Below, piece after piece: positions 35,793 to 64,000 of a stretch of DNA of 64,000 bases. The stretch comes from Lingula anatina (Eukaryota > Animalia > Brachiopoda): the NCBI GenBank assembly GCA_051362555.1, contig CM120640.1, positions 26,522,225 to 26,586,224 of the forward strand. Reading direction: 5' to 3'. The position numbers and the translations under genes were made by a program. How positions within the stretch are numbered: the first letter of the stretch is position 1; each line of letters starts with the position of its first letter. The notes under the pieces were generated by a model. That model saw only the letters and a program-made list of their open reading frames with translations, did no database searches and was not told where the DNA came from.

Positions 35793-38700
35793 ATGACCTG
35801 GTTTTGGTTGTCCTTGGTATTTACGACGCTTTGGGCTTCAGGGACAGCTGTGCCCGTCAACGTAGCCCTAAACAAGCCAGTTTCAGCCAACATCACATGT
35901 GGGACCACTGGCATTGAGACCTACTACGGCCACAATCAGATTCTTGTCCAGCCTCGTCTGCGAGTGTCAGGTGAATGTGAAGATGTTAACACTCACCCAG
36001 CTTCAGCCATGGTGGATGGCGATCCCAATACCTGGTGGCAGAGCACCTCAAGGTCCAGGCTTGTGGCCGCACAGTTAGGACTGACCAGCGCTGACCCAGA
36101 GGCTATTATTATTTTGGATTTGGATCAGGTATGCATTCTTGGAAATAACTTATTGTGGAGTTATTTGTTGGTATTGTTTGCTATAGTTATATTGACTATG
36201 AATAATTAAAAACCTGCTTCCAATAATGTAGAAAAGGCTACGCCCAGGTGTATCTTAATCATTAATTATGTATGAAAGTCTGTGAGTAATCATGCTGTTT
36301 ATTTTACATTGCAATTGTCAGTGAACATGCTCCACCATATATGTCAAACTTTAATGTGACATTCAATTGTGTTTAAAAACTTAATTTTACAATATTTGGT
36401 GAAGTTAATTTTTTTACCACTTACTGAACATTCTTGTTGTTAAGGATCTATTCTTTAATCTGTCAACCAATTAACACACCCTTATAACTGTTGTGAATAT
36501 TTAATACAGCCTGTCCAAGGAGGAAGCAATCAGGTCTGGGAAATTACACGAGAGTTAATTACATTGGTTTTTAATTAGTGGAATGCCAAATAAGGAATTG
36601 TTACACTGTGGATTTGTGTGGTGTGATTTTAGACACTTGCCATCTGTTTGTCAGTTATTTTATTATTTTTAAAGTTAAAGAAACTGAAAATATTTTTTAA
36701 AAAGTGAGAATAAGGTTCATTACACCGTGTTTTCCCATCTGTAAAACTTTCTGCCTTTTATCTTTTATGCAAATAAAATTATATTGCCAATTAGACCTGA
36801 TCTCAAATTTCCTAAAATGTTTAATAAGATTAGAACTGGCAAAAATATTTTATGAAAGAAAAACACTTAAAATGGAGGGAAATACTGTGGAATGGAATCA
36901 AGAAGCTGATCACAGATGCATGTAGTACACAAACACAAATATGTGCAATTGTAACTTTTTTGATTGAAGTTGTGAATCAGATATTGGTCATTGGTATGCA
37001 GTGTTGAAAACTTCACACATTTTCTTTTCATAAGAAATATATATATACATATACTGTTTAGCTGCATGTATATAAAATGCAGCTAAACCGTCTAGAGACA
37101 GGTTGTAGGACCTTTTTTATGGTTTTAAAACATAACTATTATATTTACAGGATTGTATATGGTATGAATCATACAATCAACATATGAAATATTCTTTCCA
37201 TTTTGAATGTGCCAAAAGGGAACAGGGTGCAAGGAAATGGAAGAATACTCTTTTTTTTTTCATAACATTAGTAAAAATTTTTGTCTTCTTGTAACCTACA
37301 GGAATTCTCTGTAGAGCAGATCATACTGAGTATGGGAGACTCAAAAAGGCCAGATCGTCTGGCCATTGAGAAATCATTTGATGGAGTAACCTACCAGCCC
37401 TGGGTGTATGTGGTGACCAGTACCTCTGAATGCCAGGATATGTTTGGAGTGTCAGAGAGAAAGCAACCAAGCGACAATGTCATACCCATATGTATAAGAT
37501 ATGAAAGTATCAGGGCTACAACAAATGAAACGGTAATAACACGTACATATTTGTCATATTTTTTACAAAATTATAATTATGATTTTAATTGTCAGATTAA
37601 ATCAAATGTTTGATTATACATATCCATGTTTTGAATCTTCCACAATTGCCAGGGAGTCAAGGCATGTGTATCCTAGGCTTCAGATCCAATTGATGTCAGC
37701 TTCTTTATTATCAAATCTTCATACATGCATAGTTTGGCATTCAACATTTTTTTATCAAAAATTATTGTTCTATTACAAATACGACCTCATGGATAGCACC
37801 AGGTAGACGAGGATAATAGCTATGTCACATGCCTTTTTACGAACTCAGAGGCATACAATTTAGATGGTGCCTTGAGCATTTAAAATTGGCACAGTAAATT
37901 TGAATCAAATGCTGCTGAATGTCAGTCTGTTAAGCAGTGGAGATTTGAAAATAAGGGCACATTTTGTATCTGGTGTTTTAGATAGGCATTTGGAATTTAT
38001 CCTAAAATTTCAAATGTCTGTCCAGTTAGAGATAAATAATTTTAATTGTGTATTTTTTTTTTCAGATGACATTTGATTTTCAAGCATTTCCACTTGCTGT
38101 CAAGGTAAAAACTGTTTACCATTAAGTCCTACAAAGTCTGACAGAACCTCTTCTATCTGAAAATGTACTGTTACATTAAGACAAATGAAATCAATACAGC
38201 TTAGAATCAGACCCAATAACTTAGATGGAAAGGTATGAACCAAAAGGACATTTTTTATCTTAATATGCCTCTTTTTTTTTAAAATTACCACTTTCTACCA
38301 AGCATATTGTCCTTCAGTTTATTTTATCAATTTCTTTTTGCTGATAATATTTCTGAGAACATTTGTTAATTTATATTCAGGACTGGAAGCTTGCCCGCTA
38401 TCTTAAGTTGCAGTTTTATGAAATGGAGTTAACATTGGGGGCAACAGGGGATAACTGGGTGAGCATATGCATACTGTTACATAAGATACTGATAAGTCCC
38501 ATTTTACTTTATCTACTGCAGTGCACTCGGTAGGATTTTTCTAAGGGAGTACCGTACCCCTTGCCCAAAAAAAGAAGGGGTAATTTTCAAAATGAAGGGG
38601 TAAAATTAAAAAAATGCTCATCAAGGTGTAATTTTGTGTATTAATAATCATGCAATCACACAGTTCACTTTCATAACAATAACCCACTATCCTTTTATCC

Positions 38701-41700
38701 AAAATCTTTTATTATTTCAATTTAACAAAAAGAAAACAAAAACAAAATGGACAGGTCACGCATAGGTCACGACTAGATACTGTGTTTGTTAGCGCAGCAC
38801 TTCAAGTTCAACTGTTTTCTAAGCTGGCCAAATCTGGGGCTAGCCGGTTGCTGCAAACCACTTTGTTTCCAACTGGCAAATGACTGCCAATAATAAACGA
38901 TCCATTTTGTCTGTGATAATAAATTTTACACTTCAAATTTTCCGGGCAAGTGAACAGCCGAAAGTCACTTGCGTTTCCGGGCAACTACCAGCTAAATTTT
39001 AGTTGCCCGGCTGATAAAACTAGTTGCGAAACGCAACCATCGCAAGTAGGTATGTCGGACTCTGAAATCTATAGTAAATAACTTTGCCTACCTTGCATGA
39101 CAAAACCTTTTAATTGACTGTTGTTTTTTTCCTTTGCTTTTCCTTTTTCTCGTCATTTTGTCATCACTGGTAATCAGCAGAGCTGGAAATTCCCGGTCAC
39201 CCGCTCGTCAAATGCAACTAAAAATTTATTCTGACGACTAAAACTACAAAAGTCACAAGGGTTACTGGCCTAAAGTATTTGGTCTGGGCGAGTGATTTAA
39301 ATTGGTCCTAAACGTATGGTTGCTCAATTAAAATGTTGAACAATTATGTGAATAAAAAAACGATCATTTCATCGTTGTTCATACCTTGTTTATACTAAAG
39401 AGAGGCACACGTGCTTTGACCTAAAACTTGCATATTATGACCAATCAGAGAAGATTACGTCATCCTCTGCGGGTCAGTGAAAGAAGAAGCATGTTTTAGT
39501 CGGGTAATTCAAATATCTTAAGAAAAAAATGAGACACTTGGGAATCAATTATGACATCTTCAACATGAGTCTGACCGTCAACAGTCAACGGACTGGTCAA
39601 CTTCGCCGATCTTCAAAGCCAAAGGTGTGCGTATTCGTACGCGCTGGGGCTCCAGCCAGTGCGTAAAAACAGCAAAACAACGCGTAATTACGCACTCTCA
39701 TACGCTAACGAGTTTACTGTACTGTATCCAGGTATTTACAAAATCTATACTTGGGAGTAACTAGGAAATTAGTATTGATTTTATTGATTTAGCAAGTTGT
39801 CTGAAAGCATTCATGCACACTGATAATTTTGCTAAGGTTTTCTGATAAATTATTCAACACATGTGACAAATCTCTTGATGCGTTGTATTTGTATTCTACT
39901 ATTGTAGAATTGTGGCAGATACATCAATATAACCTGGAAATATATGTAAAATTTAGGATTGATCCATTTATATTTTTATTCTTATATTTGTACTAAAAAG
40001 TCACTTTAATCAACTCAGAGTGATAGTAGGTTGTTATTCAACACTACTTAGGGAAACATCTGTTCATAAATTTCAGTATAAGTAACTCACATTGAGTTTT
40101 GATTTCCTCAAGTCATGGTATTGTTCTTTTATTTTATATAATGCCCATTGCTATTAATGTATGGACACATTTTCCTTGTAGCAACACTACACAGTGCGTG
40201 ACATTGAGGTGATGGCAGAGTGTATATGTAATGGCCATCAGACTGACTGTGCACAGAACAACCTCACTGGCCAGTATTCTTGTGTGTGTGGTGGCAACAC
40301 AGAGGGTCTCTACTGTGAGAGATGTCAGCCTTATTATAACCAGGCAGCCTTCACTTATGGAATACCTTGTGAAAGTAAGAGAGAAATGGACTTGTTTGGA
40401 AAAATGGGATTGGGTTGCTGTGTTCTTGAGTATGTCAATGAATTTTTAATGTGACAGTTCCAGGCACCTAGTTTTCCAATGGTAATTAATTGAATTCAAC
40501 ATTTTATATGCTGCAGGAGATAATATTTCCATATCACACAAAAATGGGTTTAAGTATTTCTGTGACTTTAAAATTGAAATTTACTTGGTCTTCTATAAAT
40601 GTGTATAAAATCAAAATCCTTGAACTCAGCATAAAAAAAGATATCATTTTATCCTAGGCTGCAATTGTTTCAACCACAGTGAAGAGTGCTATTACAATCA
40701 GACAGTGGATGCCAACAACCTGAGTTTCAATAGCAGTGGTATCAGGGCAGGTGGTGGAGTTTGTATTGACTGTCAACACAATACTTCAGGTAACATCTGC
40801 TGTAACTCTGATATTCTAAATAAATTATGATTAATACATCATATGTTACTTGTGTAAATATGCCAAACTGTTGATGACAGGTAAAGTGATGTTTTTTCTG
40901 TTTAGCAGATGTAAAATTGATTTTTCTCATGAAAATTTAATAAGTTTTAATCCTACATACTGTGAGTGTTATATGAACAGTAGATTTCAAGTTATGCAGT
41001 GTATTTTAATGAAGATGTTGCCAAGAAATGAAAAATTATTATAATTATTTATGATATTTTGTGGCAATCCTTAAATATAATGGATATCCATTTTGCTGTG
41101 ATAAAAGAGCAGGTTTTTATCCCAACCTTGATTTCAGGTGTCAACTGTGAGAAATGTGAAGACTATTTTTTCCGTCCGCATGGCCGTCCCCAGACCCATC
41201 CTAATGCTTGTGTCTCCTGTGATTGTCACATGGCAGGGGTGACACTTAACCTGGAGACAGGACTTTTGGGTGACTGTGTCATGAATAATGATTCCATATT
41301 GCCAATTGGAAAGGTGAATAAATAGCTCAGTCAATTTCTAAATCATAAGATCATTTAAAAAATATACATATATTGAAGTGCCTTGTCACTTTTTAAGGAG
41401 AAAAGACTGAGCTAATGATTAACAGAAAATCCCCATGCCTGGACATTTTGAAACACTCAATGGTTCTTGGCACCCAGTTAATATTCATACATGATAAAAA
41501 GAGAACTAATGAAAAGTTGATTATTGAATTATCAGGGTTGAATCCTGAAACAAAAAAATTAACTTCATTGCCATGATGATATATTTCAGGCTCCAGGAGA
41601 CTGCTTCTGCAAATCCAATGTGATAGGTTCCAAGTGTGATCAGTGTGCTGAAGGCTACTTTAACCTGTCCCAAGAAAACCCACAGGGTTGTCAAGGTAAT

Positions 41701-44700
41701 ATTTACATACCAGTAGTGCATGGCTGAATTCAGAAATTGTATGCAAGCTCTAAATCATGCTTTATCCGACACACTGATGTTAAATTTGTGAATTTTTCTT
41801 TGATATTCATTGATAATCAAATAGGTGTTTGAAATTGAATTTTACATGTATAACTTGTAACACTGCTAATTCTGTTAGAGCAGTGCTGCAGTGACCAAAT
41901 TACATTATGATTTATAAAATAATATGCCATGATATTTCCCTCCAGGTTGTCTGTGCCACAGCCCAGGGACTATTGGTGGTTCAGGTATATGTGAACCTGA
42001 TAATAATGGACAATGTCCCTGTAAGGAGTTTACTACAAATCGTATCTGTGACATGTGCATGGATGGATATTATGGACTAGAGAGCAACAACACCCAAGGT
42101 TAGCTTTTTTTTTTAGGCTTTGGCATTAAACCATCTCACCTTTCCATTTTTGTATTGTACTTTAAATACATTTAACTTCATTTGGACTACCATCACATAT
42201 TTGGTTCACTTCCTGCTGACCCAAAAGGCCCAGAACCTCATACTTGAATGTCTTGAAAATATTGTGTTCTGTGTTCTATTGAAAAAAGACCAAGATGCAT
42301 GTCTGAGTTTATATCTTGTCTCTTTATTCTTTGAGTAAAGTATAAACATATAATTTTTCTAATTCTACTCTCCCTCCTCCCTCTGGTGTCAGTGTTCTAA
42401 ATATCCGTCTTAAAACTGTTATTATAATTTCTAGGATTTTCATTATATTTTCAGGATGCAGTCCATGTAACTGTGATGTTGGAGGTTCCACCAGTCCAGT
42501 ATGTAATAAGACCACTGGACAGTGTCCATGCAGGCCTAATGTGGCTGGACTGATGTGTGATAGGTATTTGCATGCTTGTTGTACCTATTTAATTGTATGA
42601 TCACTTACACAAAACCCTTAACCCTTATATTACAATATTTTCACAAAGGTGCTCACTATTTTTCACAGTGATTTAAAAAAAATTCATTCATAGTGACATT
42701 CATATGCAATGGTTATACATCCATGTGTTTTCAACTGTTTCAGACCAGCAGATAATTACTACTATCCATCTGTACACTTCATTAGTGCTGAGTTTGAAAA
42801 TCTTCAAAACAATGCCTGGGACAGAAAGCAGACACCTGATCCTTTCTTTGGATTTGGATATGGAGTTCTTACCCTCACAGTAAGTAAAACAAGTTTGTCA
42901 TGATAAATAGCAAAGTAGCAAAATTACACACACTGCAACCTGACTAGATTCAGTTTTATGACCTGAAGAATTTTAAATGAGAGAAATGTTTTCGTCTTAC
43001 TCTTTGAAGGAATAGTAATGATTTTAATAATTTCTTTGCCTTCTTTAATTGATTGTAATGGTTTATCAGGGGGAGTCCACCACCCAGTTAGACATACCTG
43101 CAATCGACCAGCTCTCTGGTCAGTTTCATGTTGTCCTCAGGTACATGGCCAATGGCAGCATGGATGGCAACCTGACTGTGCTCTCTGGACAAGGTAATAT
43201 TTAACAATCACAAAGTACTTGTATGAAAATTGAGAAAATTTTTGTATTTAGTTCACTTGCATGCTATTGTCAAGCTGGGTGCATTCTAATGGTTTTTGTG
43301 AAATGTATTTCACAATATTGTTAAATTTTTACTTATTAGCTTTTATTTTAAATTTGAATTTTTTATTTCTCTCATAAAATAAATCATCACTAACATATCT
43401 CTTTCAGTCCCACAGTTAAGGCAGATCATCAGCCTCAACTTCTGTCCCACATGGTGTTATATTGCTGTTGGCAATGATGCTGTCATTGACTTGCAGCCTG
43501 GATCCTATACCATCCAGATCCAGGTTCCTTCTCAAACTGGGATTGAAATACTATTGGTAAGGTTATATCTGCTTTGTTGAAGGATATGTCACAGCATTTT
43601 TAGATTTCTATTTATTTATTATTGGTTTTTTTATCGCCAGGAAAATATATTTGATTGATTTCCCTGTATTGTGTAAATGCTATATTATCATGAAGGTTTC
43701 TTTATTAGTTAAATAAGAGCATGCCTGTTTTTTTTCCATCTGACACAACTAACAAACTTTTAAAGAAATTCTTATACTAATATTGGTTCCTGGGATATGC
43801 AGCTGTTCAGAGTAGAACTGCATGAAGTTGGTATTCTTAATTTAAAATTATTTGCATGTTGACTTTCTGATGATGATTTTTTGTGTTGGTTTTATGTTGT
43901 ATTTCAATACTAACCCCAGTTATGCATGTTGGTTAAAGGATCAGGTTATAGCTCTCCCAGTAGAGTTCAGGAATGCTACAGAGGTGCTGGGTGGAGAAGC
44001 CAACACATTTCATTCCACTTGTGATGTTGTGAGTAATCTGGCAAGGTCAGTATCTAGGCTGTAAAAGTGATGGTATGTTTGGTCTCCTCTTAAAGCATCT
44101 TGTTGGCATCCATAGTTTTGTTAGAGGTGATTTAGTTGATTATTAAGTAGAAAGTATGAAGGACACGTGGATTCAAGCTTTGATAAACCTTGTTTAGTCT
44201 TTGATAGTTTCCAAAGAATTATTATTGTCTTGAGTAACAATAAGTGATTAGGATTTGTAGAAAATGTTCTTTGGAATATCTACCTCTACCCTTAATTAAA
44301 CATTTGTTATTAGGTAAAAGAAACATTGCCTCTATTTTTTATCATATGGGCTCAGGTAAAAGAAACATTGCCTCTATTTTTTATCATATGGGCTCAGTAA
44401 ACAGACAAAAAATGTGACAATGGCTTTTAACCACATATCTAATATGCCATTTGTTTTACAGGGACCCTGCTAGGCAAAATTACTGTGATTCCCAAGAGTT
44501 CTCCCTGACCTCATACTACCTGAATGGTGCAGTGCCCTGTAACTGTGACATCCTGGGCAGTAATGGGACCATGTGTCAGCCTAAAGGTGGTCAGTGTACA
44601 TGCAAACCAGGAGTGACTGGACAAAGGTGTGACCAGTGCATGGTAGAGTTCTACAGCCTGACTTCAGCAGGATGTGCAGGTAATCACAAGTTAAATTAGA

Positions 44701-47700
44701 TCACAGACTGTTATGCTGTGCCATTGTACAGTCTGTCTGTCTGTCTGTCTGTCCATCTCTCCAACCCTCCCTCTATCCCTTCAGTAGACTGTTTGAGACA
44801 TTGGGAATGACCTGGCAACCAGTATTTTTTCCTGCACCTTACATTTGGTTCTTGTTTTCTGTAACACAAATGTCCAAGTGTGTAGACCTTTGTTTTCTTC
44901 ACAAATTTAAGTCCCTTCAGCAATAATTCTCACACTACAAAAATGTAAATCCATATTTCTTCTGATTTGTTTTGTTCAAAAGAAAATTTAACCATACATT
45001 CTTGTTTTTATGTACAGACACAGATGTGTCTGTACATATTGCCATCACCTGCGTCTGTCGTCGCCGTCGCCGTCGCCGATCATGTCGCCGTCGCCGTGCA
45101 CTTTCAGCGTTAACACCATAAGTGGAAGACAGTTTTACTTTTTGGCTTTATATTTACAGAGCTGATGAATATTCATAAAACACAGGTCAAGTTCGAAAAT
45201 CAGTATGATCGGGCCATTATTGTAGAATTTATGCTGTTTTTTCACTTTTCAGCATATATGCAACACTGTTAACACATTTCAAGGAAAACTGATAGGCCTG
45301 TTGTCATGAAACTCACAGGAGTAATCAATCTTACTAAAACGCAGATCAAGTTCGAAAATCGGCATGATCGGGCCACTATTTTAGTAGTTATGCTGTTTTT
45401 TCACTTTTCAGCATATATGCAACACTGTTAACACATTTCAAGGAAAACCCATAGGCCTGTTGTCATGAAATTCACAGGAGTAATCAATCTTACTAAAACG
45501 CAGGTCAAGTTCGAAAATCGGCATAATCGGACCATTATTTTATAAGTTATGCTGTTTTTTCACATTTCCTCAGATTCAATTCTTAGGCATGTTAACAGTC
45601 TCATTTAATTAATAAGATACGTAAAAGTGTTTGTTTGACATTTTCTGCATCTTTACAACATTGTTAGTTGATTACTTAAAAATGATGGTAAACTTGTAAT
45701 CGTGTATTGTGTAATAAGGTGTCAAAAATGGAAATAAACTCATATCATTGCAGTTTGTAAGATTCAATCATTCACTATGTTCAGAAACTCAGAATGGAGG
45801 AAATTGGACATTTGACACTGTTCTATTGATATTTTTCACATCTCATCAATTTTCTTAGTTGATCATATAAAAATGGCAGTAAACTGTTAATTTTGTTTTA
45901 TGTTAAAAAAGTGTTAAAAATGGAAATAAACCCATTTCAGAATAGTGCTGTCTTGTTTCACATTTCCTCAGATTCAATTTTTAGGCATGTTAACAGTTTC
46001 ATTATTTAATTAATAAGATAAGTAAAAGTGTTTGTTTGACATTTCCTGCATCTTTACAACATTGTTAGTTGATTTTGTAAAAATGATGGTAAACTTGTTA
46101 TCGTGTATTGTGTAATAAAGTTTCAAAAATGGAAATAAACTCATATCACTGCAGTTTGTAAGATTCAATCATTCACTATGTTCAGAAACTCAGAATGGAG
46201 GAAATTGGACATTTGACACCGTTTTATTGATATTTTTCACATCTCATCAGTTTTCTTAGTTGATCATATAAAAATGGCAGTAAACTGTTAATTTTGTTTT
46301 ATGTTAAAAAAGTGTTAAAAATGGAAAAAAAAAACATTTCAGAACAGTGCTGTCTTGTTTACATTTTGGCATTTTCAAGTTGTGACTTTGAAGTTCCATG
46401 GGCCGGAAGACCTTTGCTAGTCAAATTTTCTGAATATCCATAATACTAATGTTTTATTATTAAAAATTGATGGTCATTATGCTGTTAAACGTTATGTAAT
46501 ATTGCATCAAAATTTGGAAAAAAATATTTTGGGCACTGCTCCCATGATGACCATTTAAGAAAAATCATGTCACTTACTGTTCTCAAACTTACAGGAAAGA
46601 AACATGGGACTAAAATACAGCTTCAGTATGCAATGCAGTCTGTTTGGTAATTCTTTCTGCTAGTTAAACAGTTTTTTTTGTGAAAGTTTAATTTTTCACA
46701 TATTGGCATTTTCAAGGTGTGACTTTGAAGTTCCATGGGCTTGAAGACACATGCTAGTCACATTTTCTGAAAATCCATGATACGCATATTTATTATTAAA
46801 AATTGACGGTCATTATGCTGTTAACCACTATGTAATATTGCATCAGAATAGAAGAAAACACAATTTTGGGTGCTGCTGCCATGATGACCATTATGGGAAA
46901 ACCATGTTACTGATGATTGCCAAATGTTCAGAAAAGAAATACAGGACTAAAATGCAGCCTGAGTTGGAAAAACAGTCTAATTGGCTTCTTTTTCTGGAAG
47001 TTATACATTTTCAAAGTGTGAACTTGAACTGCCATGGGCCTGAAGCCTTATGCTTGTTACACATTTTACTTACATTGGTATTACCTGTTGAGCATAATTT
47101 AAATTTGATGTTGAATTTGCAGTTTTACATAATGTACTTTTGCATCAGAATTGACAGTAGCCTATTTTGTGCATAGTTATTTCCTGCTTTTTGTCTGTAC
47201 ATTTGACAGCTTTGCTGCCTTGTTTTCTCTTTAGCCTGTGAGTGTGCCAGCGATGACAAGATCTGTGACTTTGTTACTGGTCAGTGTAAATGTCCACCCA
47301 ATACACAGGGCAGGCAGTGTGACCAGTGTGTGGCCAACCACTGGGGCTGGGATGGCAAAGTAGGGTGCCAGGCTTGTGGTTGTAATGCCACTGGCTCAGT
47401 GAACCTGCAGTGTAACCTGACCACAGGTGTGTGTGCCTGTCAGCCTGGAGTTCATGGTGCCCAGTGCCTGGAGTGCCTGGATGAGTATGCCTTCTTCAGT
47501 CCCACTGGCTGTGTGGCATGTAACTGTAACACTGCTGGCAGCACAAGTACTGTTTGTGACAAGGGGAGTGGACAGTGCCCATGCAAGGTCAGTGCACATG
47601 GAAAGTCAAGGTGTATCTGCTGTGTTTTAATCTAATGCTAAGGAAACTGAACATTGTGATATGTTTAAGAAACATGAAAATTTTTATTGTTCAGAATTGA

Positions 47701-50700
47701 TAACACAAAGAATAAGCACTGATTTCACCAACTGAAACATTTGGTCTTAAACAAATGAATAGAACAGGTTCTTGATTTTAATTTTAAAAAAAACTTTGAT
47801 AGTTTCTATTCCTTTGTATACACTGATAATTACTTTTTTCAGAGTAACACAGTGGGCCAGTACTGTGGCAGTTGTAGGGCAGGAACATACCATCTGTCTA
47901 GTAGTTATGATACTGGCTGCCTGGACTGTATATGTATGGGTATCACTCAGAACTGTGCCAGCTCAGGACTGAGATACACACGGGTGAGAAAAATGATCAG
48001 AGCTCACATGTAGAATCATGTATGGTAACAATGTGTAGCATGTAAGAAAACAGGGAAATTTTACAAAAACTAGATGTCCATGCTCATGAACTATCCCTGC
48101 TGTTTTAGTTTTTTGCATTTTAATAACGTATATCATGATATTTGATTGATTTAATCACAATTTTAAAAACAATTTGGTAAATAGTATATATAATATAATT
48201 TAAGTGTCATATTGCTTGATTTCTTCCATTTTTTCATTCAGCAAACTCTTGCAGTAAACCAGTTTAATGATGGTATTAGCAAGCCATCCTTTGAAGTGAT
48301 GAATGCCACCGCATCCAAACCTATCAATGCCACAAACACACTGCTGAATGGCATCGAAGTCGCCCAGGCAACCATTAGCAACCCACAAGAACCTCTGTAT
48401 TGGAGAAGCATATACACCTTCATCAATGACTTCACCAAGTATTACGGATCCAGTCTAAACATGACTGTGCATTATATCAATGTCCTTGGGTTTGGAGCAC
48501 CACTCAACACCAGTGTGGTGTTGGTCACACCCACTCAGAAGAGACTGTACTATTCAGTGCCCGAAGTTCAAGTCAACACCACCACAACAATATCAGTGAA
48601 ATGGCTGGAGAGTTTCTGGAGGGTTGTGGATACTAATGCTCCAGTGAGTAGAGGGGAGTTCCTCACATGTCTGGCTGATGTGAAGTGGCTGTTGCTTCCG
48701 GCTTCCTGGTCAACAGGGCCCCATGTCACAAGGTGAGTGGTGGATATATGTGTGGAATTTAAACTCAAGAAACCTTGAGGAAAGTTAATTTTAGTTGTGA
48801 TAGTGTTCAAAATGACGAGTGTTACTTAAATAAGATTTATATTTCGACTTCTGAGGATTAAGATTAGTAAGAAAATATTCAATTTACACAGTATTAATAG
48901 ATATTCAAGTGGGTAGCATTGATACACATGTAATTTTTCAATCCATGTTTTCAGTATTGAAGCTGTGCAGTATGAAGAAGCCTCCACCTCAGGCACTGGG
49001 TCTTTAGCACTGTCAGTAGAACAGTGTGTATGTCCTCCTGGATATGATGGACTTTCATGTGAGGTAAGACATTAAGTTCATTAAATATAAATGGTGGTGA
49101 CAATAAAAACCATTCTTAATTTTATAAGTTATATAGTTTAATGCTTAAGAAATGTATGTGCCTGTTTGTGAATAGTTATCATTCATTTTCAATTTATCAT
49201 CGGAAGAAATCATTTGTCATAAAAAAGGTTGATGGTGTCTAAGGTATTTTAGAGTTGAAAACACTTTCTCAGCCAGCAACACAAAGGTATTTGCTAATTT
49301 CTTGTTAATCCATAACAGTGCAGAAGAGTTGCATATTTTGATTAATATGCCCCTGATGTATTTATTCCAGAGATGTGCCACAGGGTACAAGCGTGAGAAC
49401 GTGACCACCCATGGCTACCTGGGTGTGTGTATTCCCTGTGAGTGTAATGGCCATGCTGAGTACTGTGACCCAGACACTGGAGAGTGCAAGGACTGCAGGG
49501 ATAACACCACAGGTACGGAGACTGTATTGGCAGTGAAAGCACTCAGTCAATACCTACTTCAGATGTAATTACCTCAAATTAGTATGTTGCCTTTGTGGAT
49601 GGCATGCTGCCTGTTCCTGATCATGTAAAATCTTTTTATTTATAAGAATACAGATTTTACAGTTAACCTTGCCCAGTGAGCAACCTAATTATTATCTATT
49701 TGTGTAGGGATGAAATGAAAAATAAAGCAGGGTATGTAAAAAAAATACCCATATAATATATAATTACTATAGGAGCTGAAGTCAGATTGAGAGAAAGTCT
49801 CAAAAACCTTACAAATATTTTATTATAAGCTACAGTCTTTTGAAAATACAACACCAGTGGATATGCACATTCTTTTCGTTACAGTGTAACAACCAGGCAG
49901 AATTACTGAATTTTCTGTATTATTCAGGGACAAACTGTGAACTTTGTGCCATTGGTTACTATGGCGATGCTACCCAGGGGACCCCCAATGACTGTAGGCC
50001 CTGTCCCTGCCACAGCCCCAGGGTCATGGACCCCAGCTGTACTGAGGTGAACGGATCAGTGCAGTGTCTTAGCTGTGCTCTAGGTTATACTGGAGATATA
50101 TGTGATAGGTAAGGGAATTAGTCTAACAAGGGAACTTCTGGTCTTGGGATGGGTATACGTCTACTACATTTCTCACTGGAAATAAAGTGAGCATATATTT
50201 CTGTAAGACCTGAAATTTAAGGAAACAACAACAACAACAACAAAAAATGGTTTATTATTGGCCAAATTATTTTTTTACACATTTCTTCCTATTATATTTG
50301 TTCAGTTTGGAGTGTATCAGACTGTATGGTATAATGTTCTCACTTCCAGCTGCTTACCATTCTTCTATGGCAACCCTGAGGTTCAGGGGACTGGGACTTG
50401 CACAGAGTGTAACTGTAATGGGAACTCCCTGGACTGTGACACCAGGACTGGGGTATGCTCAGGGTGCAGCTCCAACACCACTGGCTTACACTGTGAGAGG
50501 TGTATAGAGGGGATGTTTGGAGATGCCTCACAGCAGAATTGTAGAGGTAAAATTCAGTGCTGTTTATTTCTGTTAAAGTAAAACATGGAGATGTAAAAAA
50601 AGCAATAATGTTGGAATCAAATTTCTTCAGTTCATCTAGACTACAGGTTCAACATATAAAGTGTATTGACTCTAGGCATAACAAGCAAAGGATATTATTT

Positions 50701-53700
50701 TGATATTTTAGTCCAAGAGATTCTATATTCTTATTCTTATCTCCAGGTTGTGACTGTGTAATGACTGGCTCCACTAGTGCCATATGTAACCACACCACAG
50801 GTCAGTGTGACTGCAGACCAGGAGTGGGGACCAGAGACTGTGGGAGCTGCCTGGAAAACTACTGGGGATATAATATCAGACCATTCAACAGTATGTATCA
50901 CTGATATTGGTTGCTTGTTTCATTGCTTTGTTGTATGTTCAACTCACCATGTATCAGAGGCAGTGATGCACAACATGTCCCTGTCTTTCATGTATATTAA
51001 AGTATGGGATAAGATAGTTGCATTTGTCCCTGAAAATTTTACTTGTGGATAAGGGTATATCATGATTATCACAATGTATTTTTAATAAAGAATTAATAGC
51101 ATAAAAAAAGAGACATCTAATATGATGATAATATTTTAGGTTGCATACCATGTGACTGTAATGTGGCTGGCAGTACTACATTACAGTGTGCTGGGGACAC
51201 AGGTGTGTGTTCATGTAAGTCTCATACAGCTGGGGACAAGTGTGACCAGTGTGCACCTGGACTATGGGGACTGCCATATAGACCATGTGAAGGTAAGATA
51301 TGTTAATGACACTGGGGTGTGGTAACCTAAGAGTAAGGACTGGAGGAAAGGTGAGGGCTGAACACCTGGATTTTGGTGACTGTCAGCCATATAAACTGTG
51401 TAAAGGTATGAACACAGTATGATACGTATATGAAAAACATTCAGATTATGGTAATGGGCTGCATAGTGAGAGCATATTTTTACAAGGAAAGAGATGTCAG
51501 GAATTGCTTGTTAACACTTACATGTATTTTTCATTTTGAATAGAAAACTTTTTATTCTGAAGTCGTTTCTCCTGTTCTACTTCCAGCGTGTGCCTGTAAC
51601 ACCACTGGTAGTGTGAATGCATCAGCCCCCTGTGACACCGTATATGGTCAATGTGAGTGTAAGCCTGGGGTGACAGGCAGGCAGTGTGACCAGTGTGAGA
51701 AATTTTTCATTGGATTTGGTCCTGCTGGATGCACTAGTAAGTATACAGCGTACAATGTCTTCTAGACAATGCCTCGATCTTTTCAATGGGGCAAATTTGT
51801 GGATTTTTGCAATAATATATTTTAAAGTCATAATTACTTATAATTAGAACAAAATTTAAAAAACAGGCTACATTTAGTTCTATTCTATGTAGTAAAAGCA
51901 CCACAAATGCTATAAAGAAATACAATTTCTATGATTCTGAAATTATGTATCTGGAAAAGAGCAAATTATTACTGTTACAGCATACTTGTGTCCCATGGCT
52001 GATATCTATATCCAACACACAGTAAAAAGCGTGATGAAGTAGTAGTTGTCTGCTTTTAAAGCCTATGGCTCATTAAGTACATGTATGTAGTCCATGCTTA
52101 GTTACAATGATATGTGTGTTAATGTAATTATAATATATATCCTTTTTCCATTACAGGATGTCTTGATTGCCAGTATTCACTGGGTACAGATACACTTGTC
52201 TTGCAAGACACCTGGCAAACTTACTGGAATGTCAGCAGTACTGTAGGGGGCCTTGTGGCACAAGATGCACAGCTCCAGCAGCTCACTCAGACACTGACGG
52301 GGACTCTGGACAGTATTGGATTCTCAGAAAGCACTCTCTTCTCCCTGGAGGCTACATTGAGGAACATTACAAATAAGGAAGCTGGCTATAATCAGAGTGT
52401 TATCAGTCTGCAGTCAAGGGTGAGGAAATTAATCTATATATTTATTTCTTCTTACTTTGCCAACATTGTTGCTTTAAATGAAATGCATCTAAACTTATTT
52501 TCTCATGTTGACATTAATTTAGGTTCAAATGGCTGTTGATGCTGCTAATTCGTTAAGAAATGAAGCAAGAGCAGAGCTGAACAGGCTGCAAGACATCAAG
52601 AATGATGTCAGGAGTGCACTGCAGAGTGCTCTAGAAATTGAAGCTGTATCTGTTGGTACAATAAGTCAACTGACCAACTACAGTGTGCAAGTAGAACAGG
52701 TACAGTGTTTAATGTATATATATTTTCATAGCCCATATATAAATTATGTATTATAGAGGTAGAAGATTAAAAGAATGTCTTGGTTATTTGCACATAATCT
52801 CATTTTAAAAGTAAGCAAGTAAGAAGTTTTTGCAATTGGTTTCAATAACGAGTTGCAAACAATGTCATTAAACGAATACTTACATTCTATTATTCAGCTC
52901 CTTGCCAAAAGCAGAGAAGTAAGCAGGTATCTGAACCAGAACTTCTCAGCAGAATTGTCCAGAACAGCAGCAGAATTGGCTGCTGGCATTGCAACAGCTA
53001 CAGATGCACAGGCCACCAGTGAGCTGATTCAACAACAGGTAAGAATGAAGTAATTTTTGTCATGATTATGATAATATTTTCATGGGGATGTAAATATAAC
53101 TAAACTATATTTTGAATATCATCTTATCATTTTACAACTTAATTTTGACATTGCTAAAGTTTTGCATCTCTATTTTCATCAGAGTGCTGTGTGTGCTAAC
53201 TTAGAAGGTGCAGCTCTAAATGCTCAGTCTGCCCTGAGCCAAGTTGAGGCCAACATACAGGCCATAACCACTGCAGCAAGTAATGTAATGTCTGCCAGGG
53301 ATAGAGTGATGGACATACTCAACCAAACTGAGGTACACATTTGATGGATAGCTTTCTTATACACTAATATTCAGTGAGCTTGTGGGAAGGATATAATTTT
53401 TTTTTTTAATTTTTAATGCGCTTGCAAAATGTTCTTTTGATATTAAAAAGATGGCTTCAAATTCAGTTGTTTAGGATTAACATTCATAATATGTATATGT
53501 GGATTTAAAATGTATTGGATACAAGGACTTTACCCTGTTAAAGGGATAATAACTCTTCGTATGAGATCTATATTTCACAATAAAAACATTGTGAATAAAT
53601 CATAGAAATATAATATATTCTGTTTTACCACAAAAATGGCAGTTATAACTATTATTCTGATATCTGAGCTTGTCTTTAGACCACGTGACCTCCATTGATG

Positions 53701-56700
53701 GCTATACTCTGTTAAAATCTCTTAAGAGATTTTAACAAAAAAACAAACTTTTTAGAAAAAAACCAGGGACTAACTTTGAATGTAAAAATGGATTCATTAA
53801 CCATTGGTAAGTATAGGAAAATTGTTGTTTACTCCAGGAAAATTAATTTTTTGGCCGAAACGAAGAGTTATTATCCCTTTAAGATTTTTGTCTTATATAA
53901 AATAATTGGTTCAAAACATTTTACTTTTAGTATCAAAAAAGCTATGCATTGACCCTGTTTAGTGAGGCAGAAGCCATACTAAACTTGACAGCAGTTACTT
54001 TGAATGCCAGCAGAGACTCTTTCCTTGAAGGCCAACAGGCATTTGCTGAGGCATCAGCAATTGTTGCAGATGGGATTCCTAAAGACAGTATGTACTGCCC
54101 ACTATATTAATGCTAATTTGAAGTTACACTGCTTGCCATTATATGTAGTTTGAAGCATGTGCTAGGAAAAGAGAAGAGTTTTTTTTATTTTATCAAGTAC
54201 ACATCTTCACAGCATAAATTTGAATGTGATTTGCCTCATTGAAGTGTAATGCAAAATGCTTTTTTAGCACTGCACAAAGCAGTTTTAATTGATTTTGATA
54301 CCAAAAAATGTGAATGTATCTCAAAATATAGATTTGTGATTGTATAGAGACCTGAACCACAGAACCCCATCAAGATGAAGCCTTGAAGTACAGATTTGAG
54401 CAAATCACAGTCATTTATTTGGACTCCTCTAAATGTGGTGGAACTTGGGCAAAATTGTGGTTCACTGTATTGTGGACTGGGCTAATAATTTTTTGACAAC
54501 TTCTTGGTCTTGATGGGTTCTTGGGTTTAGTGGGAGTGATAGCATGCTAGAATGAGGTTTATGCTGCATGTTGCCTGACACCTTTGTAGCCACAATTGCT
54601 TTTTACCCTTTTCTTCTTGCCTTGGAGACAACAGTTTGACAGAATGCTTTAGTGCTCCTTAAACCAAATGGATGCATTCCAACCTTGAACTGGTTCTCTT
54701 TCTTTACAGTTCTGATATCCAGCTACATTTCCTGTTTTTTTTTATTATTATATCCCTAACTCATCATGATAATTGTTTTTATTTCTAACTTCTTCTTGAA
54801 CCTAAAGCATTATGCAGTCATGGTCACTGTGAAACTCAGTGACAATAACACACCAACTCCTGGATGTCTGCCTCTTGCTCTCTGTATATATATTCTGTAC
54901 CTGGAAGAATTATCCTCTCAATATCCTTCACATGAGTGAATTATCTTTCCCCCTCCATTCCCCCCTTGATGAGTGACATGAAAGTGGGTTTGGTTCTGCT
55001 AACAGGTGCATGCAGGTTAAAAGGTTTATATGTGATCCATGTAAAAATTTCAGACCAAATCCCACTGGATGCTGCAGGTCACCAGTACATGATAATGTTT
55101 ATGGAGAACAGAGTAGAGAATGGGCCCAAGTACAGATACCTGGAGCTGTTCATCACTCCAGCAGGTATAGAAACAAACAACGTGACAGTCCAAATAAATC
55201 AGGTGTACAATAGTGCTATACCAAACATGACCTTTGTGGTCAGTGCAGGAGAGGTGAAGAAGGTGAACATATCTGTTGAGCTCAGGATGCAAGGGTCAGT
55301 AATGACCAGGCAGGGTCTGGAGATTTTGGCCACTGATAGAATAGTTGTCTATGCCTTGAACAAGGATGAGTTCTCCACTGATGGGTTCCTGTCTCTTCCC
55401 AGAGAATCTCTGGGGACAGACTACTACACAGTCTCGTATTACCCTCCTAATTATAAAACACAGGTGGGTGTGGCAGCTATGGAGGATAACACTGAAGTGA
55501 TCATCACTTTGCCACAGCAGACCTTCACAAGCAGTCGCGTGTTTGTGCTGTACAGGGACAATATTTTCAGGAATGGTAACTCATTCACGGTGATGATGAA
55601 CAGGTTTGATACTCTCCAGTTACAAGACGAGGTGGCTGCTGATTTGACAGGCACACGCATCCAATCCAGCAAACTAGTGGCAGTGTTTAGTGGGAATGTA
55701 CGAACTAATGTGGGACAAGGCACCCGTTCTAGGGACCACTTGGCAGAGCAGATTCCACCAATCAGCTCATGGGGGAGGAACTTTGCAGTGGTGCCAATTC
55801 CAAATCGTACCACTGGAGATGTGGTCAAGATAGTTGCCAGCCAGCCAAATACAGAACTGATTGTTGCTAATGCTACAGAAGAAATGGTCTATACACTCAC
55901 CCAGGCAGGGAGTAGTAGAACACTCCTGCTACCGTCATCTACTTACTGTTTCATTGCAGCAACAAAACCCATCCTTGTAGCTCAAATTGTTTACAGTCAG
56001 TTGACAGAGGAGAGCATTGAAAAGGCTGACCCGTCAATGATCCTCATCCCGTCCATCGAGCACTACAGCTCCAACTACCATTTTGCCCTGCCAAAGCCCT
56101 CAGTGGGCAACTACACCCACTACTTTCTGATAGCCATTGAGGACAGTGCCAAGAATGGGGTCATTCTTGATGGTCAGCCATTGCCCAGTGCTGCCCTGTG
56201 GCACCCTATCCCCTTCACCACCTTAGTGGGTGGGTATTTTGTGGTCAGTGGAGACCAGGCACACACCATTACTCACACTGACCGCTCAGTGACCTTCATG
56301 GGGGTTATGTATGGAGCAGGAGACAGGGAGAGCTATGGACTGCCTATTGGGATGAGGGTACGAAACCAGGTAGGTCGACTGATTTTTATGGTTAAATTTC
56401 AGAAAAATTTAGATTTTAGAAGTTTAAGAGATTAACATTTCCATTTCATTGCTTATGTTATAAGTAAGTCACAAATATCCTGTCTTTACATTTTTGTATA
56501 GGTGTATATGTTTATGTTGATTATCTTTTTTCTTCTTTTTCATCTCTCCTCAGTATGAAGTTACAGGTATGTCTTTTTCAGTACTGTTTCATTCTCGTGA
56601 AAAACAATAGCAAGCAATCATAATTTGATGCTTTCTTATCTTGGAGTTAAGCCAATGTGTATATTCTTAGGGATAAAGTGGTGTGTTAACATTTTCAGAT

Positions 56701-59700
56701 ATAGATGCCTTATCCTTTTTCGATATAACTATATATTGCATGTTCTTACAAAAAGTGGTTGTCATTTAAGTTTCTATATGTATATATTTCAGCACTTCAA
56801 ACAACATTGGAATCATCAGGCAAAAAGTTTGTGGTAATGTACATGGAGAATAGGATCGAAATCCCTACTCAACCTTTTGTGGAGCTGTTTGTAACCCCAG
56901 CAGAGAATGTGTTCAGTGTACTGGTCAACATCAACCAAGTGTATGACCAAGCATATGGCAACCGGACATTGGTCATTCAGGGAGGACAAGTCAGAAAGGT
57001 GGACATTCCAGTCAGTTTTAGAGTAGTGGGGAATTCTCTTACTAGGCAGACCCTAGAGATCACCAGCTCAGAAGCTGTGGTGGTGTATGGAGTCAACAAG
57101 GATGAGTATTCCAGTGATGCCTTCCTGGCTTATCCTACTACTTCACTGGGGAAGGAGTATTATGTAGTGTCCTATGCACCTCCCACGATTAGCACAGAGT
57201 TGGGGATAGCTGGGGTGCATGGTAATACCAGAGTGAGTGTCACTTTCAGTCCTAATGTTCAGGTGTCATATGGTAGTGTCACATACGGTGGTGGTGACAC
57301 TCTGACAGTGACTTTGAACCAGTTCTCATCTCTACAGCTACAGAGCCAGTTTGGGGATTTGACTGGGACACGTATAGTATCAGACAAACCAGTGGCAGTT
57401 TTCAGTGGCAATGTCCGCACCAGTGTCCAAGGCAACTCAAGAGATCATCTTGTCGAGCAGTTGACTGCTGTTCAGTATTGGGGCACCGAGTTTGCTACTG
57501 TACCCGTACCACAGAGGACTGTAGGGGACATCTTCAGGGTTGTGGCAAGTGCAGACAACACGATTATTAATGTTCGAAATTCCACCAGTGTTGTGACATC
57601 TTATATCAACACTGCAGGGGGATTTGTACAACTACCTCTGGATTCAGCAACGTATTACTACATCACATCCAACTTCCCCGTGCAAGTTGTGCAGATAGTG
57701 AAAAGTCAATTAAATGGTGAGCTGGCAGATCCCTCCATGTTCCTGCTGCCCCCTATAGCCAGATACAGCACAGGGTACCACTTCTCCCTCCCAGCACAGG
57801 CAGCCACTGGGAGCTACACCCACTACTTCATGCTGGTTATAGAGAACAAGGACAAACATGGCTTGCTGCTGGATGGACAGCCCCTGAACACAGTCCAATC
57901 CCTGACTTGGAACACTATTCCAGGGACATCACTGGTGGGGACGTACTTTGAGCTCTCTGGGGACCAGTCTCACTTCATGACCCACTCTGACCCTAGTGTC
58001 ACCTTCATGGGACTCCTGTATGGTGCTGGGGATAAGGAAAGCTATGGTCTACCTATAGGACTGAGATTTGCAGATAATTTGGTGAGTGCACTTATTAGTC
58101 TTATAACGATGAAATTGATTTGTAATATTAGTGTATGCTAATTTACCATTAAATAATATCTTTTGAAATAAGAGAATGAGAATCATTTTATTATTTTTTA
58201 AATTGATTTTTTTTCTTCTTATCATTTCAGGAGGGAATACAAGGTAAAGAAACCTTTAAATAACATATATTTTTTGTGGCTTAATCTTCAAGATATTAAA
58301 ATACCAAATTCAAATGTTTTTTTTTACTTATTAATGTTTTGTGTGGAGATTGCATTTGACTAGCTTCAGAATGATTTTACGACTGAAACCTGAAGTGAAA
58401 TGAGATTAAACTAACACACTGTTTTACATTGCACGCCTTTTTGTGAGTAACACAAGCTTTTTTGTAACTATTATAGCTGCACCACCAACAATAGATGCAG
58501 GTAGAGAATACATGGTCGCTTTCATGGAAAATAGAATCGAAAATCCTAAATATCAGTACCTGGAGCTTTTCCTCACTGCAGCAGGGGACGCTGTGGCTGA
58601 TATATCCGTCAGCATATCACAAGTTCATGACAGAAATCTTGGTAATAGTTCTGTGGTTTTAAGACCAGGAGAGGTGACACGGGTAAATATTTCTGTACAG
58701 TTGAGAATGGAGGGCACCACTCTATCAAGGCAGGGAATAGAAGTGAAAGCCTCTGGGAACATCATCCTGTATGGTCTGAACAAGGATGAGTATTCCACTG
58801 ATGCATTTTTGGCCTTACCACAGAATGGCATTGGCACAGATTATTACACTGTCTCTTACTCACCGGCCACCACCAAGACCGAGTTTGTCATTGTGGGTAC
58901 CAGAGATGACACTGTGGTCACAGTGACCCTCCCAAATAGAAACAATGTAGCAGTCCAGTGGGCAGGTCAAATATATTCCAGAGGAGAGTCATTCAAGTTG
59001 ACATTGAACAGGTTTGATACAGTCCAGATCCAGAGTCCAGACTCTAACTCAGACCTCACTGGCACTCACGTCCAGTCTGATAGACCAGTGACAGTCCTAA
59101 GTGGAAATGTTAGGACTCAGGTCGGCCAAGGAGTGTCCCGAGACCACCTGGTGGAGCAGATCCCTCCTGTGTCTTCATGGGGGAGAAACTTTGCCACAGT
59201 GCCTATCCCAAACAGAAGCACGGGGGATATTTTTAGAGTTGTTGCAAGCCAGGATAACACTATTGTCACCATAAGGAACACAGATGGGGACCAAGTCAAG
59301 ATTTTAGATTCAGCAGGAGGATACACAGAGTTCACTATATCATCTACTGCTTACTCCTATATTACGTCTAACCATCCCATATTGCTTGTCCAGATTGTAA
59401 AAAGTCAGGTGTCATCATCAACATCTGAGGTGGCTGACCCAGCTATGATGGTGGTCCCACCTTTTGAGCATTACAGCAACAATTACCACTTCTTATTGCC
59501 TTCTGGTGTGGCTGATACTTATGTCCACTATTTTCTGTTGGTCATTGAGTCTGACCTGAGAAATGACCTAAGACTGGACGGCACATTCATGACTGGGTTG
59601 CCATGGCAGAGTATACCTGGGACAAATAAAGTAGGCACTTTCTTTGAGGTTACTGGGAGCCAAGCCCATGTATTAAATCATGTGAACCCCAATGTAACAT

Positions 59701-62700
59701 TTATGGGGATGCTGTATGGAGCTGGTGACAGGGAAAGTTATGGACTGCCAATAGGCATGCGCTTAGTTGAAAATGTGGTGAGTTGAAATTTTAAAGAACT
59801 TGGTTGGAATATAAATATCTAAACTTCTTTATGAATTATGCATGTATTATTACATAAGCCTGAGTTTATACAGTTAATAGGGCTTGTTTTGCAACTGTAT
59901 ACTCAAGTATGGTAAATATTGCAGATGATGCATAATACATTTGGCTATGCAAGAAGAAAGCACACTTAGCACAAAACACATTTTGTCAGTGTTTAATCAA
60001 TTTGCCATAGCACTTTGTTTGAAAGCATGAATTTTATTGTTTTTTGCACATTTTTTACATTTTACCTAGGATCAAGGAGGTAAGATTGGATAACTAGAAA
60101 CCAATAGTATAATGCTTTGTGATTCTTGTGTCTTTTTCCTCATCCTTTTGTCCCTTTAATTAATATGTAAGCTTTACATTTTCTATTTTTCAGTATCTTA
60201 ATCCCCAAAAGCTAAATAATTAATCACTGACTTTCCAGACTTTCTTGAAACTTACCATCAAAACATGTCTTCTTTTGTATCGGTCTGAGTTTTGACTTTA
60301 CTATTTGATAATAGCCAGTTGTACAGCGGCATTACTATTCATCATTATGCTATGTTTTCCATTTCATGACTAGGACAAAATGCATCTACAGGTTAAAGCT
60401 GAATTTTGAAATAATGATTATTATGTATGATTATGCACAGTGTATGTGTTAGTCAGGCACAGGTGCTGTTGGGGTAGGGAGTAGTATTTGTATACATGTA
60501 TGGAATATGGGCCGGTGTCAACATAAGTATTGGGTTGTTTTCATTTTCTATGTACATATTACACTACATAATGGCATTTTCAAATACATTATCTCTGCTT
60601 GCTAGCTGACCATCTCTTAGTGTTGGCATCTTTGAAGTTTTTCTCTTTTTGAATTCTCTGTGAGGGAATTGTTTAACTGTAATCACAGAAATATATTCAC
60701 TGCAACGACATATTTGTGAAATAATCATGATGAGGATATCCATTTTTACTGAATTAATGAATTTCACATTGAAGTTGTAATTTCAATAAATCTTTTTTAT
60801 TTTAAATGATGATTTTCTGAATTTTGGGGTTTTATTTACGAAAAAACCCTTTTAGAATATAAGATAAAACTGAAAAGTAGAAATTAGGATATTTGTACAT
60901 TTTTAATGTAGAATTTGTGTCAATATCATATTTAATGTGTCAAATATTAACTCTAACTTTTTAATATAGGTTTTGAGAGCTGGACCAACATTTCCATGCA
61001 GTTGAGGACTTTGTCCAACAGTACAGAGCAGCTGATGCTGGACACACAGGTCTTAGCACAGCAGGCAGAACAACATGCCCAGACTGTCACTGCAGCTGCA
61101 CAGGCTATTCAAAGGTACTGCTGTGTGAAAATCTTGTCCTAGATTATACTTGTGATATGATGTTTAAGAATTCATAGCAATAATAATGTAGTCATACAAA
61201 TGACGGATTACAATCTAAATTTGAAAGAGTTTGTTTTGCCTTGAATCTGCTGTAATTTGTTTGAATATTTAAGTTGCCATTGTTTGATGTGGATATATCA
61301 AGATTTGTAATATTGTAAGATATATCAAAGACACCATTACAAGATCATACTGAATCCAGTGTTGTCAAATTTTTAGTAAAGTGATTTGCCTTATTCTGAC
61401 AATAAATACATTTTTAAAAATGACATTAAAGGTGTAGTTTAGCCATCTATACATCTCCTTACTATGTTTCCAGGGAGTTCTCCCTTGTAGAATCCAGAGG
61501 TGCCATGGCAGTGGATGCTATACAAAAGTATCAAGATGTTGCCAGAACTCTGAACTCCTCTCTGTACCTGGCTCAAGATGCCAACAACACAGTGACTCAG
61601 GCCATGCAGTCCATGCAGGACATCACAGTGGTAGACCTCCAGAACCAGGCACAGACCAGCTCACAGGCTAGTTTGGACATGAAGGCCCAAGTTGATGCAA
61701 GGGTTATAAATCTTGCAGGTAATTATGGTTTAATGAAGTGGTTTATTGTAGATTTTCTACATTTTGGATAAAGTAATTGCACTCAAAAGGAGTCCAGTGT
61801 TATCAAGTTTTCAGTAAGATGAATAGACTTTGTACTAAGTGTGTACTATAAAGGTTTTTTTTTCATTTTTGGGGAATTTTTTTAAAGACAGGATATTCAT
61901 GATTGCCAATGAGAGCTAACACAGCAATACTCATAAATTCATCATACATTATTTTAAGTTTAGCCAATTTTCATATTTCTTTATCAATAAAAGTTTTATA
62001 AAGTTACTTTTTTAACCAAGGCAAAATAATCAAACTGAAATTTTCTATGATTATGTAAAGCCATGCCGTGTGTTAGCCTGCCTTTAAATATATGACAGAT
62101 AATATTTTTGCTGAATCTTTATGTGAACCAATTTGTTTGATTAGGTCTCAACTCCCAGTTGAATTCTGCCAACTCCAGTCTGCAGTCAGCAGTAGGCATG
62201 TGGGCTGGTTTAGAGACACAGATAGCCAACCTGGAGGCAAGAGCTGCACAAGTGAATGCAGCTTCTGCAGGTACACAGGCACTATAGATAGATAGAACAA
62301 TAATACTGCCTTGTATTATTACATTTCTTCTATATTTCTTAATTTTTGTTGCGACAGTCACCAGTGCTGTGTGCCACAATTCTGTGAAATTATAAGCAGT
62401 TTTACATTGGGTATTTTTAAACAGGAACAATCTCGAATATCAAAAAATCATTTCTGTTTTTCAAAAGGTTTGTTTTCAAATTTTCAGATCCAGGCATTAT
62501 GACCTTGCTGGACTCAGCTAACAATACAGCCACCCAGGCTCAACAGCTGAGTGACCAGGTGCTCCAGGCTGACCAGAGTGACCAGAGCCAAATCCAAGCT
62601 CAGGAGGATCTCGTAGCTGTCATACAGACTAGTGTTAACAGCATATCAGTGGTCACTGCACAAATTAATGCAGAATGTAAGTCGATTTAAATTGAAATGA

Positions 62701-63793: not shown

Positions 63794-64000
63794 GTATGTG
63801 AATCTGCTGAAGGCCATTTAGGTGCACAAAATATGATTTGTTTAGACTTTTTATCATATAAAAAACATGTTATAATGGGCATATGTATCCACTGACTTAT
63901 AATAGAAAACAAAGGAGTTGATCTCATTTCTTTTTAATGCTTGTTTCTAGACACAGACTGATGAAATTTTTTAAAATTTTTTAAAGTAGTGTGAAAATTT

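Follow-up and report, generated by a model that had tools for sequence, protein, structure and literature searches.

The window analysed here is a stretch of 64,000 nucleotides (nt) from the brachiopod Lingula anatina (NCBI GenBank assembly GCA_051362555.1, contig CM120640.1, positions 26,522,225 to 26,586,224 of the forward strand), and all positions below refer to it. Its plus strand carries a laminin alpha-type gene in which the coiled coil is interrupted by three large exons (B1, B2 and B3), each encoding an IgGFc_binding domain and each followed by a microexon (m1, m2 and m3; Table 1). An earlier note on this DNA had drawn attention to the microexons and suggested that they might act as a regulatory switch. 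The unusual feature of the locus is likely the presence of IgGFc domains within a laminin coiled coil, which that note had left unnamed, the microexons themselves being ordinary. We propose, with a probability of roughly two in three, that the microexons are the constitutive tails of a phase 1-1 IgGFc module that was inserted once in the laminin coiled coil and triplicated in place.

Table 1. Exons of the laminin gene and of its insert, with the evidence on which each is called
Feature	Position	Strand	Description	Support
Upstream laminin exons	35793..51737	+	LN, LE repeats, L4, LE repeats in order	Laminin_N, EGF_laminin, Laminin_B matches
Five coiled-coil exons 5' of insert	52157..54087	+	52157-52419, 52523-52699, 52898-53038, 53183-53332, 53931-54087	
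Large exon B1	55054..56369	+	IgGFc_binding, phase 1 to 0	PF17517, E 1.6e-59; reads cover
Microexon m1	56554..56566	+	13 nt, phase 0 to 1, four codons (Y-E-V-T) and a base	Junction reads and top rank
Large exon B2	56793..58081	+	IgGFc_binding, phase 1 to 0	PF17517, E 4.9e-61; reads cover
Microexon m2 (predicted)	58231..58243	+	13 nt, phase 0 to 1	Sequence score
Large exon B3	58477..59777	+	IgGFc_binding, phase 1 to 0	PF17517, E 3.4e-66
Microexon m3 (predicted, weakest)	60070..60079	+	10 nt, phase 0 to 1	Frame restoration
Coiled-coil exons 3' of insert	60970..62676	+	60970-61114, 61474-61718, 62145-62270, 62488-62676	
Coiled coil-to-LG exon	62963-63401	+	Runs into first LG domain	

Structure of the laminin gene

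The upstream laminin exons, which were scanned one by one, lie on the same strand and in the expected order. From 52157 to 63401, the 16 exons, with the three microexons included, join into a single stop-free frame of 1,991 codons. The upstream half of the coiled coil opens with a CxxC motif, comprises 291 helical residues and ends in phase 1, and the downstream half contributes 290 helical residues (581 in sum); the helical periodicity of both flanks exceeds that of 300/300 shuffles. Between these halves lies the IgGFc block of 1,314 residues (codons 297-1610). Laminin_N was detected in exons at 35.8 and 37.3 kb, and LN matches laminin alpha-1 and netrin-4 weakly (E 0.003). The downstream exons match Laminin_G and, weakly, Laminin_II (E 0.0078). 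The best solved match of the exon that runs into the first LG domain is laminin alpha-1 chain 5mc9_A (E 1.4e-7), and the window end at 64000 falls inside that domain. Four short non-LE exons between the LE arrays (42744-44046) gave no Pfam match when searched singly (0/4); from their position in the laminin architecture, they are probably an LF domain of the alpha3/5 type. Like laminin alpha chains (PMC6744579), the gene thus combines LN, LE arrays with L4, a long cysteine-opened coiled coil, here interrupted by the insert, and LG directly after it.

Microexons and reading frame

When recomputed, the coordinates of the microexons, their lengths of 13, 13 and 10 nt, their AG/GT ends and their distribution of one per large exon all agreed with the earlier note. 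Its observation that large exons end in phase 0 while the following acceptors need phase 1 is borne out by the joined frame, in which the large exons enter in phase 1 and leave in phase 0 and the microexons do the reverse; the junction peptides it had put forward (NQYEVTALQ, DNLEGIQAAPP and ENVDQGGFES) are present in the translation. The strong pyrimidine tract ascribed to all three microexons holds for m1 and m2 and fails for m3, which has an ordinary one, since pyrimidines at -23..-4 number 19/20, 18/20 and 15/20, respectively, against 10-16 in 13 ordinary exons. The introns 5' of m1, m2 and m3 measure 184, 149 and 292 nt, and the intron 3' of m3 measures 890 nt.

Short-exon candidates were scored with a splice-site matrix trained on just 13 ordinary exons of the laminin gene. 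Each microexon ranks first in its own gap (among 75, 16 and 166 candidates for m1, m2 and m3), and the top candidates are of 3n+1 length in all three gaps, for which chance was worked out by hand as ~0.05 (from 26/75, 8/16 and 47/166). An equal-scoring 3n+1 candidate appeared in 38/500 resampled gaps for m1, 0/500 for m2 and 269/500 for m3. By sequence alone, m2 therefore lies far above chance and m1 modestly above it; m3 does not, given its resamples and the 7 candidates that reach its score in control introns (3,297 bases). The best-scoring short-exon candidate on the plus strand of the whole window is m2. Donor scores of the microexons range from 9.1 to 10.1 (m3 9.1), compared with -2.1 to 12.3 in the 13 ordinary exons. 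Constitutive microexons are reported to bear a signature of short introns on both sides and strong splice sites (PMC4317164), and this signature is present here, with introns of 149-292 nt except for the 890 nt after m3. Phase-1 donors at +4 (56373, 58085 and 59781) were considered as alternatives and rejected because of their poor consensus.

Two small observations concern other short-exon sites. Tandem acceptors at 58231 and 58234 would give m2 a 13- or a 10-nt form, both 3n+1 and in the same frame. Another small exon, likely of 39 nt (38066-38104, in the region 38063-38104), was scored as a short-exon candidate in the LN domain.

As had been claimed, skipping a lone microexon shifts the frame, and translation then stops after 15-42 nt of the following exon (at 56835 for m1, 58492 for m2 and 61003 for m3). 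Removal of any single exon, large or micro, likewise breaks the frame, with a stop within 42 nt, and removal of any whole module or of all three keeps it.

RNA reads across the insert

Four of nine listed RNA runs (X1, X7, X3 and X4, of which 6-25% each was read) were aligned to 52001-58180; their tissues are not given, and read joints refer to the best 15 of 21. Inclusion of m1 is supported by 10 reads in three of the four runs (three in X1, five in X7, two in X3 and none in X4). In these reads, the joint appears as 56369->56790 with the first 10 letters of the microexon inserted, printed for X1 and X7; the last three letters are absorbed by the aligner because they are identical to the acceptor's own CAG. 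Neither the skip joint 56369->56793 nor 56373->56793, which the earlier note had named as the refuting alternative, occurs among the best 15 of 21 joints. The pooled depth over the final 43 nt of B1 is 11.5, so that 10 inclusion reads leave little room for m1 skipping. The bin 56533-56738 has zero depth. We accordingly regard the microexons as likely real, m1 being demonstrated by junction reads, m2 very likely and m3 likely, the last and weakest of them being predicted from frame logic.

Coverage also bears on whether laminin and IgGFc exons belong together. Pooled depth per exonic base is 6.9 for coiled-coil exons, 7.3 for B1 and 7.1 for B2, compared with 0.2 for the intron before B1, and this equal depth on coiled-coil and IgGFc exons supports one transcript. 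In the stranded runs, B1 and B2 reads lie on the strand of the coiled-coil exons, and B1 depth tracks that of the laminin exons run by run (paired values of 4.6/4.5 in X7, 0.9/0.8 in X1, 1.3/1.7 in X4 and 0.1/0.3 in X3). The laminin joints 52699->52898 and 53332->53931 are present. Read-through of B1 into its intron was rejected, as no depth is found there, and so was an in-frame ATG 5' of B1 as a start, as coverage appears to begin at the acceptor 55054 and is nearly nil 5' of it. At fixed exon positions, the reads differ from the window, so they derive from other individuals or from a close relative under the same species label.

Origin of the IgGFc modules

Each large exon with its microexon forms a module (1329, 1302 and 1311 nt) of 3n length with phase-1 introns on both sides, which defines class 1-1. 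Identity among the three domains is 49-51%, and with the compared proteins it reaches no more than 43%. In a tree of 43 domains (the three exons and domains from 23 of 196 retrieved proteins), B1-B3 form one clade (99/97), placed among brachiopod, bryozoan and bivalve sequences, and their splice donors fall at one aligned column. The nearest Atlas clusters of the large exons are mostly eukaryotic, with Mollusca the commonest. In a DNA alignment of the three junction regions, homology stops at the donors, and the flanking introns do not align between units.

The earlier note had read the conserved position and phase of the microexons as a sign of selection. Since the three units descend from one, this no longer follows: the shared position and phase are explained by the triplication of one two-exon unit together with ordinary frame constraint, and the repetition would be one ancestral arrangement copied twice instead of three independent cases. 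The microexon itself may be a shrunken linker exon, or gain of an intron close to the module end may have severed it as a tail.

The predicted structure of B3 (pTM 0.92) is compact and almost all beta, and its last strand ends at residue 424 of 433. As nine residues of the exon still follow this strand, the microexon residues are taken as linker. By sequence, the IgGFc domain had no match among solved structures; fold searches returned generic beta-sandwich matches (best Z 8.1, rmsd 3.1, 96 aligned), which indicate neither a new fold nor a function. The N-terminal IgGFc_binding domain of FCGBP is thus present in three copies. The vWD/C8/TIL assemblies of FCGBP-type proteins are not found: the flanks are coiled coil and LG, and the exons scanned gave no vWD match. 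In human FCGBP, the N-terminal domain failed to bind IgG (PMC8267560), so the name of the domain gives no function.

Search for similar chains

Protein searches were word-seeded and covered lengths of 759-2165, 1045-3325 and 3326-5000 residues, with 50/50, 120 of 158 and 34/34 matches listed, respectively. All 196 retrieved IgGFc proteins match the IgGFc exons. Against 14 exons on the laminin side, none of them reached E 0.01, the best value being 0.015. The window chain has 38/434 five-letter words in common with the Lingula query, compared with 4-18 for five recovered matches that were checked; a full-length database copy would therefore likely have surfaced. A literature search, with subscription journals outside its scope, found no laminin with an IgGFc domain among the top-ranked papers listed (3-25 per search), although supplements of genome papers may list one, and the accessible parts of PMC11592408 and PMC4582122 hold nothing on such an architecture. 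A laminin chain that carries three IgGFc domains inserted in its long arm is likely a new form of a known protein, pending the two boundary junctions.

Tandem PF17517 proteins from Lingula and Watersipora resemble the insert in that two or three copies lie side by side, with an identity of up to 43% to those of the window. They differ in their linkers of 30-60 residues with 2-8 Cys, in their location beside TSP1, EGF or collagen and in the absence of laminin parts, whereas adjacent IgGFc domains here are joined by few residues. A hedgehog protein of 4,476 residues has 11 tandem IgGFc-like domains; tandem arrays of this domain arose in several animal lineages.

Interpretation and alternative explanations

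The two-exon module likely entered a laminin alpha-type gene once, through a phase-1 intron midway along the coiled coil, and was then likely triplicated in place. Each microexon would supply three or four linker residues and the single base needed to bring the frame back to phase 1. The microexons would be kept because their loss breaks the chain, as the translation shows, and presumably not for any use of skipping. The gene would thus encode a laminin chain with three beta-rich globules (1,314 residues) set into the middle of its long arm. Its helical halves would pair with beta and gamma chains, and the globules would likely loop out as a side appendage and likely add an adhesion or matrix-binding surface. 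On balance, we favour the view that this is a lophotrochozoan laminin alpha-type chain with its midpoint broken by shuffled FCGBP-type domains, stitched by microexons, with modules that are possibly switchable as wholes, which would give a basement-membrane laminin a new binding appendage.

Several points weigh against this interpretation. The boundary joint 54087->55054 is not among the best 15 of 21 joints; the ordinary laminin joints 52419->52523 and 53038->53183 are likewise absent from that set. In X7, depth is 7 at 54080 but averages 3.0 across the 37 nt with which B1 begins, so a block-skipping isoform may exist. Depth is low throughout (0-8 per run), and because tissues are not given and joints are the best of a larger set, rare or tissue-limited skipping would be missed. 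Read evidence ends at 58180, which leaves m2, B3 and m3 predicted, and m3 does not exceed chance by sequence. The clade of B1-B3 could also have arisen if triplication had taken place earlier, in a donor gene of this lineage, and the retrieved proteins include no orthologous laminin to serve as an outgroup for the insertion.

The depth drop in X7 would be expected if the whole cassette were regulated, giving a conventional chain (54087 to 60970) alongside chains with one to three modules, with the microexons constitutive within. Every whole-module skip stays in frame, a skip of the block leaves 677 open codons, and modules of phase 1-1 are readily lost when exons are skipped (PMC3927616). We nevertheless consider this unlikely, as pooled depth on B1 and B2 equals that on the coiled-coil exons, with the qualification that short exons lose clipped reads and poly(A) selection favours 3' exons. 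Skip joints would be another trace: 54087->56793 is not among the best 15 of 21 joints, and the acceptor at 60970 lies beyond the aligned region. The IgGFc exons might also form a separate same-strand gene nested in the laminin intron 54088-60969, with its own start and end. The laminin frame is open without them, an AATAAA at 60785 follows m3, read-through of B3 meets a stop two codons beyond the donor, tandem IgGFc proteins that stand alone are found in Lingula and Watersipora, and neither boundary has a read joint (54087->55054 absent from the best 15 of 21, 60079->60970 beyond the read region). We hold such a gene to be most improbable, since the phases match at both ends, B1 coverage is consistent with a beginning at its acceptor, depth follows the laminin exons run by run and the insert lacks the Cys-rich linkers that the stand-alone proteins have.

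The switch proposed in the earlier note, in which regulated skipping of a microexon leads to nonsense-mediated decay (NMD) or to a chain without the distal coiled coil and LG domains, accords with the position of the stops after single skips, which all lie upstream of later exon junctions as a switch exon of alternative splicing coupled to NMD requires. NMD would also hide skip products from steady-state reads, and NMD-linked non-symmetric alternative microexons have been discussed in human brain (PMC4317164). A premature stop upon skipping is true, however, of any exon of non-3n length. No skip was seen among the best 15 of 21 joints, inclusion of m1 accounts for about 10 of a depth of 11.5, the splice sites carry the constitutive signature, and from one unit to the next the flanking introns show no alignment. 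A single secreted structural gene would have no need of three redundant switches, and duplication explains the repetition. UGC, which the majority of SRRM3/4 (eMIC) microexons have between their branch point and AG (10.1101/2024.09.17.613571), is absent within 40 nt of the acceptor for m1 and m2 and occurs once, at -25, for m3. The switch is thus unlikely, indeed very much so. Finally, the high share of resamples that match the score of m3, and the existence of frame-compatible sites (donor 59781, acceptor 60978 or 61002), would fit a third junction that uses another short exon or a shifted site. Such a misassignment is quite improbable: m3 ranks top in its gap and has a consensus donor (9.1), the alternatives have poor consensus by eye, and m1 shows the architecture to be real. 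We therefore retain the single insertion and triplication of a module with constitutive microexon tails.

Comparison with known systems and implications

Phase-1 introns are where class 1-1 modules become inserted, and such modules undergo tandem duplication (PMC3927616). The insert shares with them the phase-1-flanked unit, its internal position in a multidomain extracellular protein and its tandem copies; it differs in that the unit is a 1.3-kb exon with a microexon and the recipient is a coiled coil instead of a linker between globules. Constitutive microexons of human brain (PMC4317164) and plants (PMC8831610) encode conserved motif cores, whereas those described here are non-conserved linker tails of a triplicated module. 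The switch-like microexon of Trichoderma Xlr2 (PMC11121469) is alike in that a very short exon decides the full-length product, and the SRRM3/4 neural microexons (10.1101/2024.09.17.613571) are of the same size class. Both are subject to regulated skipping, which is not seen here, and the latter mostly have UGC and a set-back pyrimidine tract, neither of which is seen here. The long arm of laminin is described (PMC6744579) as broken by local heptad flaws and by the L-beta segment, a small looped-out knob in vertebrate beta chains, compared with 1,314 residues and three globules in the window. The insertion site is the centre of the long arm, where vertebrate laminin binds agrin (PMC6744579).

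If our interpretation is true, a laminin coiled coil tolerates a central insertion of 1,314 residues, far above the size of the L-beta segment, which bears on how register is kept among the three laminin chains, and the FCGBP N-terminal domain gains a defined matrix setting in which to search for ligands. If the microexons were overlooked, the gene model would be broken in three places and its architecture would stay hidden; that pipelines miss such exons, as the earlier note had expected, has been reported for plants (PMC8831610).

Other features of the window

A 345-bp element lies in a laminin intron (element at 53538-53882); its terminal inverted repeats are perfect, measure 23 nt and end in TTAA. 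RNA depth over it runs into the hundreds to thousands, and loose ends occur at each terminus, so that many copies are transcribed elsewhere. The element is likely a miniature inverted-repeat transposable element, possibly of the Kolobok or piggyBac kind. In the long laminin intron, at ~45150-46400, two pairs of near-identical direct repeats (~120 and ~370 bp), seen by eye, are probably remains of repeat elements. Upstream of the laminin gene, part of an ADAMTS or ADAMTS-like gene (~6286-28000, plus strand) encodes a cysteine-rich domain, a spacer and TSP1 repeats, with a long Arg/Ser/Tyr/Gln-rich low-complexity exon (~20816-21340) between the spacer and the TSP1 repeats.

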